NCBI GenBank assembly: GCA_000002435.2 | Contig: CM018792.1 | DNA length: 64,000 bases | Reading direction: 5' to 3' (one strand) | Source: Giardia intestinalis | Taxonomy: Eukaryota | Part shown: positions 37,223 through 48,549 of the stretch, one piece after another | Numbering within the stretch: position 1 is the first letter of the stretch | Layout of the letters: each line of letters opens with the position of its first letter | Program-made: the position numbers and the translations under genes | The notes under the pieces: model-generated | Databases searched by the model: none | Told to the model about the DNA's origin: nothing | The model's input: the letters and a program-made list of their open reading frames with translations, nothing else

Positions 37223-39046
37223 TCACGCCTTCCCTCTACACACGAACCACCAGCAGAGGAAGCCGACGAGGCCCCCCACGACGGCGACCACAGCCACGGA
37301 GATCCCCGCGATGGCCCCCGCGGAGAGCCCGCTCCTGTTGGCGCCAGAGGACACGCACCTGCCACCCTCTAGTCTGTACCCATCACTGCACTGGCCGCAC
37401 TTGTTCTCCTCGCTGCACCTGACGCACCCGTCGATACTGCAGGCGATGCACTGGGAGCCGTCCAGGCTGGGCCTCTGGTCTTTACTGGTACAGCCCTCGC
37501 ACTTATCGCCTGCTCCACAGTGCGAACATCCACTAACGGTACATGCGAAGCACCCGCTCCCAGCCAGGTTGGGCTTGTTGTTGCCGCTACACGCTGTGCA
37601 CGTGGCGGGGGCCATGCCAGGAGCCTCTAGCTGTGTCGGGGCTGTACATGCTGAGCAGCCATCTACTCCCACATATGCCTTAGCAGTATCACCAGTGCCT
37701 GTCAGTGTGCCTAGGGGGTTGCTACAAGCCAACACGGACTGATCAGTGTTGGATGCCCCTGGGACCAGGAAGTACCTATTGTTGGCCGCCTCTGTGCATA
37801 TCCCACTACTATCTGCTGTCTTGCACATATAGTTGCCAGGCTGAGCTGATACACTATAACAGCCACCCATGTATAGGAAGTACCCCGTAGTACATGATGT
37901 ACAGACATGGTTGTTACAAGTATTACTTTGAGCATCACTATTACATATACCATCGATAGGGAACTTATTGGTCTCTCCACAGTATGAACAATAGTGCTTT
38001 GCATTGCCCTTATCATCTATTATCATGGCATCGCAAGCTCCAGAGGTACCACCACAAGCTGTAGGATCCTCACAAGTCTTGGTACATGTGACAGAGCCAG
38101 GACTGCTATCGCTCTGCTTGCGATAGTTGGGCTTACAATCGGTGCACTTGAAAGTATTGCCATCATTCGAGCAGACACTGCATCCATCGATGCCACCTTT
38201 GGCTGTGTCACTACAAGGGACGCACTCCTTTGTTACACCCTCGGTTTTTAGGAAGTATCCCGGCATGCATTCAGTACATTTGTTAATGTCAGTTTCAGCA
38301 GTACACTTTGCACAGGTATCAGCGCATTTCTTCGTACAAGTATTAGTCTCAAGAAAACGACCCGATAGGCATTCAGAGCACGTTGTTTTGGTACCTGCCT
38401 CCTTGGTGCATTTGTTGCAATCGGCAACACCCTTGTTTGTATTCTCATTATTTCCACTAATATCACCACATAGATAACAGGCTGAGTCATCGTCTGCCTT
38501 GAAGTGATTCTCATCCACACATCCAGAGCTCATATCAACACAGGTTGTCGTTCCATCCAGCTCTGTCTTTACCTTCTTATTACCGCAGTCACTGCATACC
38601 GGCTTCTGTAGCTTTGCATCGTACGTGCAAGCAGTGCACTCTGGTATGCCCCCCTGCTCTGCTGCACCGTTACAGGCTGTGCACTTGCCGGTGCTTGGGT
38701 CGGGGTACTGGTTATTATCGCAGGTTTTTGAGCACGACCCGTCTGACTTCAGATAGAAGCCCGCTTTACAAGATGAACACTGATTCTGACCGGCCCCGGT
38801 ACATGTGGCACAGTTGTCATTACATTTGGTACATGCCTGAGAGTCCATGTAGTATCCATCTCTGCAGGTACTACACGTGGCAGGTCCTGTACTACTGTCT
38901 GACTTGGTACACTGTGCGCAGTTAGCCACCCCCGTATATCCATCTGCTCCATTGATATCGGAGCACAGTATGCACTCCCTTCCCTTCTCTGGTGTTGCAG
39001 CCGGGTTCTTGAACAGGCCGTTAGCTGTATTACACTCAGTGCACAC
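37223..39046 (-). CDS. VSP-like unit B (body b + tail 2); identical to units E and G; no ATG and no signal peptide
   Basis: Frame reads W-S-E-I-C-T-K-A-E-G-G-V-C-T-E-C-N-T-A-N-G... The ORF-track M is GTG at 39044-39046. Ends CRGKA* and AGTGAAT (37209-37215). Confidence 0.65.
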   Translation of the reverse strand: MCTECNTANGLFKNPAATPEKGRECILCSDINGADGYTGVANCAQCTKSDSSTGPATCSTCRDGYYMDSQACTKCNDNCATCTGAGQNQCSSCKAGFYLKSDGSCSKTCDNNQYPDPSTGKCTACNGAAEQGGIPECTACTYDAKLQKPVCSDCGNKKVKTELDGTTTCVDMSSGCVDENHFKADDDSACYLCGDISGNNENTNKGVADCNKCTKEAGTKTTCSECLSGRFLETNTCTKKCADTCAKCTAETDINKCTECMPGYFLKTEGVTKECVPCSDTAKGGIDGCSVCSNDGNTFKCTDCKPNYRKQSDSSPGSVTCTKTCEDPTACGGTSGACDAMIIDDKGNAKHYCSYCGETNKFPIDGICNSDAQSNTCNNHVCTSCTTGYFLYMGGCYSVSAQPGNYMCKTADSSGICTEAANNRYFLVPGASNTDQSVLACSNPLGTLTGTGDTAKAYVGVDGCSACTAPTQLEAPGMAPATCTACSGNNKPNLAGSGCFACTVSGCSHCGAGDKCEGCTSKDQRPSLDGSQCIACSIDGCVRCSEENKCGQCSDGYRLEGGRCVSSGANRSGLSAGAIAGISVAVVAVVGGLVGFLCWWFVCRGKA

Positions 39047-39168
39047 TCCTCCCTCAGCCTTTGTACATATCTCACTCCACTATCATACTATCACACGCTA
39101 TCACCCATTATCACCCTCTATCACACATTATCACCCATTATCATCACTCATAGCATTCACTACCTAAG
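39047..39168. repeat. 122-bp inter-unit spacer made of degenerate 9-10 bp TATCAC(N)3-4 (minus strand TGATA) repeats
   Basis: CTCACTCCACTATCATACTATCACACGCTATCACCCATTATCACCCTCTATCACACATTATCACCCATTATCATCACTCATAGCATTCACTACCTAAGTCACGCC. The same 122-bp spacer, with 1-2 substitutions, lies at 42841-42962, 44787-44908, 46604-46725, 48550-48671, 50367-50488, 55903-56024 and 63549-63670. Confidence 0.85.
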
Positions 39169-46603: not shown

Positions 46604-46725
46604 TCCTCCCTCAGCCTTTGTACATATCTCACTCCACTATCATACTATCACACGCTATCACCCATTATCACCCTCTATCACACATTATCACCCATTATCA
46701 TCACTCATAGCATTCACTACCTAAG

Positions 46726-48549
46726 TCACGCCTTCCCTCTACACACGAACCACCAGCAGAGGAAGCCCACGAGGCCCCCCACGACAGCGACCACAGCCAC
46801 GGAGATCCCCGCGATGGCCCCCGCGGAGAGCCCGCTCCTGTTGGCGCCAGAGGACACGCACCTGCCACCCTCTAGTCTGTACCCATCACTGCACTGGCCG
46901 CACTTGTTCTCCTCGCTGCACCTGACGCACCCGTCGATACTGCAGGCGATGCACTGGGAGCCGTCCAGGCTGGGCCTCTGGTCTTTACTGGTACAGCCCT
47001 CGCACTTATCGCCTGCTCCACAGTGCGAACATCCACTAACGGTACATGCGAAGCACCCGCTCCCAGCCAGGTTGGGCTTGTTGTTGCCGCTACACGCTGT
47101 GCACGTGGCGGGGGCCATGCCAGGAGCCTCTAGCTGTGTCGGGGCTGTACATGCTGAGCAGCCATCTACTCCCACATATGCCTTAGCAGTATCACCAGTG
47201 CCTGTCAGTGTGCCTAGGGGGTTGCTACAAGCCAACACGGACTGATCAGTGTTGGATGCCCCTGGGACCAGGAAGTACCTATTGTTGGCCGCCTCTGTGC
47301 ATATCCCACTACTATCTGCTGTCTTGCACATATAGTTGCCAGGCTGAGCTGATACACTATAACAGCCACCCATGTATAGGAAGTACCCCGTAGTACATGA
47401 TGTACAGACATGGTTGTTACAAGTATTACTTTGAGCATCACTATTACATATACCATCGATAGGGAACTTATTGGTCTCTCCACAGTATGAACAATAGTGC
47501 TTTGCATTGCCCTTATCATCTATTATCATGGCATCGCAAGCTCCAGAGGTACCACCACAAGCTGTAGGATCCTCACAAGTCTTGGTACATGTGACAGAGC
47601 CAGGACTGCTATCGCTCTGCTTGCGATAGTTGGGCTTACAATCGGTGCACTTGAAAGTATTGCCATCATTCGAGCAGACACTGCATCCATCGATGCCACC
47701 TTTGGCTGTGTCACTACAAGGGACGCACTCCTTTGTTACACCCTCGGTTTTTAGGAAGTATCCCGGCATGCATTCAGTACATTTGTTAATGTCAGTTTCA
47801 GCAGTACACTTTGCACAGGTATCAGCGCATTTCTTCGTACAAGTATTAGTCTCAAGAAAACGACCCGATAGGCATTCAGAGCACGTTGTTTTGGTACCTG
47901 CCTCCTTGGTGCATTTGTTGCAATCGGCAACACCCTTGTTTGTATTCTCATTATTTCCACTAATATCACCACATAGATAACAGGCTGAGTCATCGTCTGC
48001 CTTGAAGTGATTCTCATCCACACATCCAGAGCTCATATCAACACAGGTTGTCGTTCCATCCAGCTCTGTCTTTACCTTCTTATTACCGCAGTCACTGCAT
48101 ACCGGCTTCTGTAGCTTTGCATCGTACGTGCAAGCAGTGCACTCTGGTATGCCCCCCTGCTCTGCTGCACCGTTACAGGCTGTGCACTTGCCGGTGCTTG
48201 GGTCGGGGTACTGGTTATTATCGCAGGTTTTTGAGCACGACCCGTCTGACTTCAGATAGAAGCCCGCTTTACAAGATGAACACTGATTCTGACCGGCCCC
48301 GGTACATGTGGCACAGTTGTCATTACATTTGGTACATGCCTGAGAGTCCATGTAGTATCCATCTCTGCAGGTACTACACGTGGCAGGTCCTGTACTACTG
48401 TCTGACTTGGTACACTGTGCGCAGTTAGCCACCCCCGTATATCCATCTGCTCCATTGATATCGGAGCACAGTATGCACTCCCTTCCCTTCTCTGGTGTTG
48501 CAGCCGGGTTCTTGAACAGGCCGTTAGCTGTATTACACTCAGTGCACAC
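46726..48549 (-). CDS. VSP-like unit G (identical to B and E)
   Basis: 607-aa translation identical to units B and E. Confidence 0.65.
   Translation of the reverse strand: MCTECNTANGLFKNPAATPEKGRECILCSDINGADGYTGVANCAQCTKSDSSTGPATCSTCRDGYYMDSQACTKCNDNCATCTGAGQNQCSSCKAGFYLKSDGSCSKTCDNNQYPDPSTGKCTACNGAAEQGGIPECTACTYDAKLQKPVCSDCGNKKVKTELDGTTTCVDMSSGCVDENHFKADDDSACYLCGDISGNNENTNKGVADCNKCTKEAGTKTTCSECLSGRFLETNTCTKKCADTCAKCTAETDINKCTECMPGYFLKTEGVTKECVPCSDTAKGGIDGCSVCSNDGNTFKCTDCKPNYRKQSDSSPGSVTCTKTCEDPTACGGTSGACDAMIIDDKGNAKHYCSYCGETNKFPIDGICNSDAQSNTCNNHVCTSCTTGYFLYMGGCYSVSAQPGNYMCKTADSSGICTEAANNRYFLVPGASNTDQSVLACSNPLGTLTGTGDTAKAYVGVDGCSACTAPTQLEAPGMAPATCTACSGNNKPNLAGSGCFACTVSGCSHCGAGDKCEGCTSKDQRPSLDGSQCIACSIDGCVRCSEENKCGQCSDGYRLEGGRCVSSGANRSGLSAGAIAGISVAVVAVVGGLVGFLCWWFVCRGKA

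Follow-up and report, generated by a model that had tools for sequence, protein, structure and literature searches.

The array and its units

The stretch of DNA considered here, 64,000 nucleotides of contig CM018792.1 in the Giardia intestinalis assembly GCA_000002435.2 (hereafter the window), carries on its minus strand, from position 35444 up to 64000, at least 16 pseudo-VSP units arrayed head to tail; these units are related to the genes for variant-specific surface proteins (VSPs), the antigens behind antigenic variation in this common human intestinal parasite. The array was delimited by the sites encoding the VSP tail CRGKA followed by a stop codon, by matches to the Pfam family PF03302 (Giardia variant-specific surface protein) and by the families of repeats. 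A search with the CRGKA-stop pattern returned 16 sites, all on the minus strand (35444, 37223, 39169, 41050, 42963, 44909, 46726, 48672, 50489, 52393, 54210, 56025, 57999, 59868, 61716 and 63671), which define units A to P; unit P is clipped at 64000 by the end of the window, and the 5′ head of the array lies outside it. The complete units range in size from 1,779 to 1,974 bp. The units match PF03302 with E-values of 1e-28 to 1e-38, and the translated units contain 22-29 CXXC motifs each, as well as the GGCY motif. Of the 15 complete units, 12 have a VSP frame of 575-653 codons free of stops, and in an equal number the CRGKA tail, which follows a conserved transmembrane domain, lies in frame with the long open reading frame (ORF). 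In units K, M and N, the tail is reached only past a frameshift located 70-125 codons upstream.

The proteins encoded to the left of the array are, residue for residue, reference proteins of G. intestinalis WB C6 (ATCC 50803), and the repeats that had been singled out in a preliminary description of this DNA very probably belong to a ‘linear array’ of pseudo-VSP (psiVSP) genes of this strain, a degree of confidence that applies jointly to the identification and to the recombination, non-expression and reservoir steps discussed below. The region delineated in that description takes in only a part of the 16-unit array. With 16 adjacent units on one strand, the array exceeds the minimum sizes by which such arrays, with their very short or overlapping intergenic regions, have been recognized both in G. 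intestinalis (at least two units) and in the Giardia muris study (more than three).

Identical copies, unit types and probable recombination

Three units, B (37223..39168), E (42963..44908) and G (46726..48671), all on the minus strand, belong throughout to a single type, denoted b. The same 607 amino acids are translated from 37223-39046, 42963-44786 and 46726-48549, in agreement with the preliminary description, which also regarded the three copies as perfectly identical. At the DNA level, this is the case for E and G, which show no differences over the full 1,946 bp of the unit (5′ spacer included) and match exactly over 2,082 bp that extend past the ends of the ORFs (42892-44973 and 46655-48736). 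Unit B, in which the stop-free frame runs from 39079 to 37226 (618 codons), falls short of identity at three positions, two of them within the ORF and synonymous (37265 and 37283, in codons of the transmembrane tail) and one in the spacer (39097). For an exact repeat of 2 kb, chance is not an issue. The ORFs found on the plus strand within the units (e.g., 42658-43482 and 46421-47245) are, as had been supposed, artefacts: they have no Pfam matches, are wholly antisense to the VSP frames and are rejected as genes, and they recur because the DNA itself repeats.

A second type, c, is represented by units D (41050..42962), F (44909..46725), H (48672..50488) and K (54210..56024), all on the minus strand, and together with type b it forms a higher-order repeat (41372..51041, minus strand) that consists of one type c unit and one type b unit. 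The proposed periodicity, with D+E, F+G and H onward as successive copies about 3,763 bp apart, is exact in its period but not in its extent: the third period is incomplete, and the repeat amounts to about 2.6 periods, namely two full ones, unit H and the tail of unit I. Runs of identity at the 3,763-bp offset cover 41372-42795, 42892-44973, 45008-46558 and 46655-47278; examples of unit-specific patches are 42796-42891, 44974-45007 and 46559-46654. The first two periods, D+E and F+G, are 96.0% identical, the differences being a short 5′ patch and the replaced 3′ block of D with its 96 extra nucleotides (32 extra codons). Between F+G and H+I, the identity drops to 86.2%, as the body of unit I belongs to another type and I matches G solely in its 3′ ~550 nt.

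A block-wise map resolves the aligned units into a patchwork of sharply bounded segments that belong to about six types. Within type c, D is identical to F, H and K for about 1,400-1,590 nt and carries a different 3′ block; relative to H in particular, 1,591 identical nucleotides are followed by a single differing block of 280 nt, and H itself differs from F at 12 positions grouped in three small patches. Unit C (39169..41049, minus strand) is a chimera in which a type a body, identical to that of unit A over 1,430 nt, is joined to a type b 3′ end; unit I (50489..52392, minus strand) is a chimera of the same composition and differs from C in the first 135 nt only. Unit A, the terminal unit at the 3′ end of the array, is of type a, unit L combines a type e body with a type b 3′ end, in units M and N (57999..61715, minus strand) segments of types e and f form mosaics, and unit O is of type b with three patches replaced. 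The 3′ coding block of A is of the type seen in F and H, unlike that of its near-twin C. The frameshifts of K (~70 codons ahead of the CRGKA stop) and of M and N (~110-125 codons ahead of it in each) occupy differing positions (54420-54433, 58303-58373 and 60113-60203); they might be real mutations or residual indel errors of the long reads.

Pairwise comparison of units of the same type places nearly all differences in contiguous replaced blocks; scattered single substitutions are nearly absent, and there are no substitutions at all across stretches of 1.4-2.1 kb. The breakpoints fall in three conserved stretches, the coding start, the AKAYVGVDGCS(A/Q)CTAP region and the transmembrane region. 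Between types, the pairwise synonymous divergence (dS) is 0.5-1.5 and the ratio of nonsynonymous to synonymous divergence (dN/dS) is 0.23-0.44, and 79 of the 82 cysteine columns are invariant. The unit types are old and the copies young; old, protein-constrained types have thus been copied and recombined very recently. The earlier suggestion of ‘very recent duplication or ongoing homogenisation’ fits both the zero-substitution stretches and the restriction of the differences to blocks. The latter pattern points to unequal crossing-over combined with segmental gene conversion. By these two processes, with breakpoints in the conserved stretches, the units would have been copied and shuffled to yield the type b units B, E and G, the type c units D, F, H and K, the (c+b) higher-order repeat of 3,763 bp and the chimeras C, I, L and O.

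Tandem repeats with exact identity over 2 kb are error-prone to assemble, and the warning about collapse or expansion given in the preliminary description is sound in principle. Mis-assembly, or consensus polishing that evened out near-identical copies, could have produced the unit count or the perfect identity, in which case the true locus would contain fewer, more, or less identical units. All short-read (Logan) contigs that include the phospholipase B (PLB) gene end ~380 bp beyond it (~29,080), at the start of the cysteine-rich block, which implies that this region (29534-34755 together with the array) cannot be assembled from short reads; furthermore, public proteins reach at most 68% identity to unit B, and hence these data offer no independent sighting of type b. 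However, the source assembly was built from 200x PacBio RS II data with a read N50 of 12.7 kb and 10% of the reads longer than 20 kb, followed by Illumina polishing, and no misassembly was reported when the chromosomes were compared with optical maps and split-read alignments (PMC7000408). The largest duplication that the reads could resolve was ~20 kb (Xu 2020, PMC7000408), a bound that can be cited in support of an artefact; the near-identical tract here is ~9.7 kb long and contains three copy-specific patches, and given the read lengths it should have been spannable. Moreover, the distinct chimeric unit ends are not something that an assembler would invent, and the lack of start codons (see below) explains why the units are missing from protein sets. 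An artefact of assembly is thus a distinctly unlikely source of the array in its present form.

On its 3′ side, the array adjoins ~35 kb of cysteine-rich, ankyrin and housekeeping genes, among which PLB, two ankyrin-repeat proteins, one hypothetical protein and a High cysteine membrane protein Group 4 (HCMP-4) are exact matches to reference proteins. The HCMP-4 gene (32302..34755, minus strand; exact match to KAE8304459.1) flanks the 3′ end of the array. Both this gene and another at 29534-31657 (minus strand) are cysteine-rich, match PF03302 partially, lack the CRGKA tail and separate the array from the housekeeping genes, so that the locus as a whole is a mixed cluster of cysteine-rich families. 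Elsewhere in the window, a tRNA gene (Rfam RF00005, 66 bits) is located at 26922-26994 (minus strand), between an ankyrin/RING gene and the PLB gene, and two ORFs for iron-containing alcohol dehydrogenases (5326-6657 and 8864-10045, both minus strand) are found on either side of a VSP-like cysteine-rich gene (6654-8822). The second of these matches only the N-terminal iron-containing alcohol dehydrogenase domain and overlaps an ORF of 171 aa (9999-10514, minus strand) that follows it, and may be split or truncated.

The counterpart of this junction in the assemblage A2 isolate DH is found on AHGT01000001.1 (GCA_000498715.1; its proteins bear DHA2 locus tags), which is 85.6% identical over 4 kb to positions 36307-32303 of the window. 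The aligned segment comprises the 3′ half of unit A and the HCMP-4 gene, and at the array's 3′ junction the two loci are accordingly orthologous. In DH, only two VSP units (703 and 604 codons), separated by a 36-bp spacer, adjoin the HCMP-4 orthologue, and they are preceded by ~3.4 kb without VSP sequence (positions 10001-17056 of the 47273-69384 segment of AHGT01000001.1). Neither of the two units possesses a start that combines an ATG with a signal peptide, and P0001, the head unit, has no ATG. Either the array expanded in the WB lineage or the DH assembly collapsed it. Beyond the HCMP-4 orthologue the synteny stops, with an ankyrin/RING gene in DH at the place of a 707-aa cysteine-rich gene in the window.

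Missing starts, probable silence and a possible role of the array

The units terminate in the manner of VSP genes. The extended VSP poly(A) signal, ACUUAGRUAGURAAYRY as defined in a preprint (10.1101/2022.03.07.483299), has an exact match that overlaps the stop codon in 15 of the 16 units and is missing only from the terminal unit A. The spacers carry stops in the VSP frame, and the gap from the stop of one unit to the next stop-free frame spans 12-89 nt. In the spacer at 39047..39168 (minus strand), for example, the stop is followed by the poly(A) signal ACTTAGGTAGTGAATGC and then by degenerate GTGATA(G/A) repeats that contain stops. Past the spacer, VSP coding resumes in mid-protein (WSEICTKAEGG...; WSEICTKAEGGVCTEC...).

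The beginnings of the units are of a different nature. The VSP initiator [CT]AATGTT (the Kozak-like element PyAATGTT) has no match on either strand between 35444 and 64000. Methionine is absent from the first 300 codons of the type c units (D, F, H and K), and in type b the first methionine is codon 78. Nowhere in the units is an in-frame methionine followed by a hydrophobic N-terminus, the maximum 9-residue mean hydropathy being at most 1.27; for five complete VSPs of WB, which begin with MFQLIPLFVASALMAAC or MLLIALHLVTSILAAPC, the corresponding maxima are 2.09-2.71. These values are Kyte-Doolittle means over nine residues within the 25 residues after each in-frame methionine and represent a simple measure of hydropathy, not a SignalP prediction. 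Three units do start with ATG, namely I and J (52393-54209, minus strand), which both begin MICTAAKDG..., and L, which begins MLYSDSDS...FMGGCY; in none of them is the start followed by a hydrophobic segment, and unit I accordingly has no signal peptide. The first residue of unit D aligns with residue 116 of a complete VSP (P0004), which implies that the units lack ~115 N-terminal codons, those for the signal peptide, the first cysteine module and the first GGCY motif, although this GGCY motif is still retained in unit L and in both DH units. None of the array units, the ATG-starting I, J and L included, is present in the public protein collection, where the best match to unit B is 68% identical, as would be expected if the units are treated as pseudogenes in the reference annotation.

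On these grounds, protein expression from the units is unlikely. The opposite possibility, that they are genes translated via non-canonical starts, by read-through, from a polycistronic transcript that originates at the head gene, or after splicing to a 5′ exon for a signal peptide, could draw on the long open frames, the intact poly(A) signals and the ATG codons of I, J and L, as well as on a database entry: the 390 aa at residues 196-585 of unit J show 100% identity to a deposited partial ‘Variant-specific surface protein S6’ (Q8I8W3, P0078), which begins at an internal methionine of J. The origin of ‘VSP S6’ was not found in the text or supplements of the literature, where two apparent matches (‘vsps61’ and ‘VSPs6,8’) proved false. 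Expression of this kind is nevertheless highly improbable: no methionine precedes a signal-peptide-like segment, the VSP initiator is missing, the spacers contain in-frame stops, such units are treated as psiVSPs both in the reference annotation and in the 2022 reclassification, and the arrayed psiVSPs of G. muris are essentially all untranscribed (PMC7641422). Splicing to a signal-peptide exon in particular is rejected, given that the Giardia intron 3′ motif was not found in the spacers.

A function at the RNA level might be considered instead, with the array transcribed on one or both strands into long or small RNAs for post-transcriptional silencing of VSPs, the homogeneous 3′ ends providing many target copies. 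The presence of 16 copies of the conserved VSP 3′ region with its poly(A) signal within 28 kb would suit such a role, which we infer from this arrangement, and control of VSP expression of the RNA interference (RNAi) type is discussed in the literature. Against it, the array has no Rfam match, and the arrays of G. muris are reported to be untranscribed (PMC7641422); an RNA source is very unlikely. A structured RNA within the array is rejected, the sole Rfam match being the tRNA at 26922-26994, outside it.

Segments of the array are also found in VSPs elsewhere. An exact tract of 83 aa (YTCTKTCEDETACGG...NNYFLYMGGCY) is common to the type c units and P0004, a complete VSP of 748 aa with a signal peptide that is encoded on a 4.02-Mb record, that is, on another chromosome, and has an overall identity of 54% with unit D. 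In D, the tract occupies residues 305-387 (~41680-41930 of the window), in a region where the types within the array differ substantially, and it is a strong candidate for a conversion tract that connects the array with an intact VSP of a different chromosome. Two further proteins are composed of array segments: P0007 (XP_001703902.1, from an earlier WB protein set) combines the head of L and the body of M/N with a different tail, and P0003 consists of ACI, LMN, L and AFH segments in mosaic form, has ~100 additional N-terminal residues that resemble a VSP N-terminus, and might be either another unit or the array's head gene.

If the array has a role, it is most likely that of a silent reservoir of in-frame VSP segments, which would pass by gene conversion into complete, expressible VSP genes. 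Members of such arrays have been speculated to be non-functional and to represent either a reservoir for recombination or discarded remains (Adam 2010, PMC2996952). The donor reservoir is thus a published hypothesis. The mosaic of blocks seen in the units, their conserved frames and the 83-aa tract agree with it without amounting to proof. The other alternative made explicit by Adam (2010), that the units are functionless debris, i.e., remains of discarded, 5′-truncated vsp genes that unequal crossing-over has multiplied and that take no part in antigen diversification, is a real possibility, if not a probable one. The units have no promoter, ATG or signal peptide, three of the 15 are already frameshifted, and identical young copies do not require any selection for intact frames. 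Conversely, 12 of the 15 keep 575-653 stop-free codons despite a dS of 0.5-1.5 between types, the dN/dS is ~0.3 with almost perfectly conserved cysteines, and array segments occur inside other VSPs, including a complete one on another chromosome; these observations fit a donor role and could also predate pseudogenisation.

Several considerations weigh against the interpretation of the locus as a silent, recently recombined psiVSP array with a reservoir role. Both the silence and the copy number are deduced from the assembled sequence, and consensus polishing of multi-mapped reads could exaggerate the exact identity of the copies. The repeats may have been collapsed in the two-unit DH assembly. 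The values of dN/dS below 1 between types could wholly predate entry into the array and are no proof of selection acting on it. The 83-aa exchange with P0004 could have run in either direction and, if the Q8I8W3 entry is a cDNA, at least one unit, J, is transcribed.

A stronger version of the reservoir hypothesis holds that the array is an actively used donor library, from which conversion moves in-frame blocks of psiVSPs to complete VSPs on other chromosomes, and that the recent (c+b) amplification in WB, compared with two units in DH, reflects selection for donor copies. We regard this as rather unlikely. Were it true, G. intestinalis would diversify its antigens rapidly through changes in the DNA itself, in addition to the epigenetic/RNAi switch, and the tract shared by type c and P0004 would be one example. 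The ~208 psiVSPs, most of which lie in such arrays, exceed the 133-136 intact VSP genes in number and could serve as a reservoir or be debris. The array described here bears the marks of fast turnover, with identical copies, differences confined to blocks, at least 16 units as opposed to two in DH, and an apparent sequence exchange with an intact VSP. In practical terms, short-read mapping, quantification of expression or small RNAs and copy-number calls are unreliable over 35-64 kb of the window.

Relationship to known arrays of surface antigen genes

In Trypanosoma brucei, the pseudogene arrays of the variant surface glycoproteins (VSGs) are large tandem reservoirs of incomplete surface-antigen genes. 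The Giardia array resembles these silent arrays in its organization and in that its members are possible conversion donors for the formation of mosaic antigens (for the comparison, see PMC7641422). Unlike in T. brucei, however, VSP switching in Giardia is described as epigenetic or post-transcriptional and as not involving transposition into an expression site (Adam 2010, PMC2996952), and a donor role of the array is hypothetical.

A closer parallel is provided by G. muris, in which arrays of 5-23 untranscribed psiVSPs show evidence of gene conversion and one internal array has been very recently duplicated (Xu 2020, PMC7641422). Like the units described here, the members of these arrays are VSP pseudogenes that lack the signal peptide and originate from tandem duplication (PMC7641422). 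The G. muris arrays are almost all adjacent to telomeres and their cytoplasmic tail is CRGK, whereas the tail in the present array is CRGKA and the 3′ side of the array lies next to ~35 kb of cysteine-rich, ankyrin and housekeeping genes, the 5′ side being beyond the window.

The array corresponds most closely to the linear, or psiVSP, arrays of G. intestinalis itself (PMC2996952, PMC7000408). More than half of the vsp genes of WB were assigned to such ‘linear arrays’, with intergenic distances of 60 bp on average (range 0-241); the downstream members all lacked the initiator, most of the arrays resided in short contigs, and longer ones were predicted (Adam 2010, PMC2996952). The 5′-most member of a linear array is often a typical VSP that possesses an upstream region and the initiator (PMC2996952, PMC7000408). 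The same classification as psiVSPs, together with the extended poly(A) motif, was adopted in the 2022 preprint (10.1101/2022.03.07.483299). The present units share with these arrays the head-to-tail arrangement, the short spacers (12-89 nt here), the absence of the initiator and start in the downstream members, the CRGKA tail and poly(A) signal that are retained, the kinship by duplication and the long stretches of 100% identity, and they come from the same organism and reference genome. The differences are those of scale and identity: there are at least 16 units in the present array, compared with 10 in the longest array of the 2007/2010 assembly, and some are fully identical although arranged head to tail, whereas no identical genes were seen by Adam (2010) except as inverted pairs (PMC2996952). 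That earlier observation is incomplete, as the long-read assembly shows, and the 2007/2010 Sanger assembly may have collapsed identical tandem copies or left them out. There is no difference in kind: the array belongs to a class that is already known and annotated in the reference genome and introduces no new type of element or mechanism.

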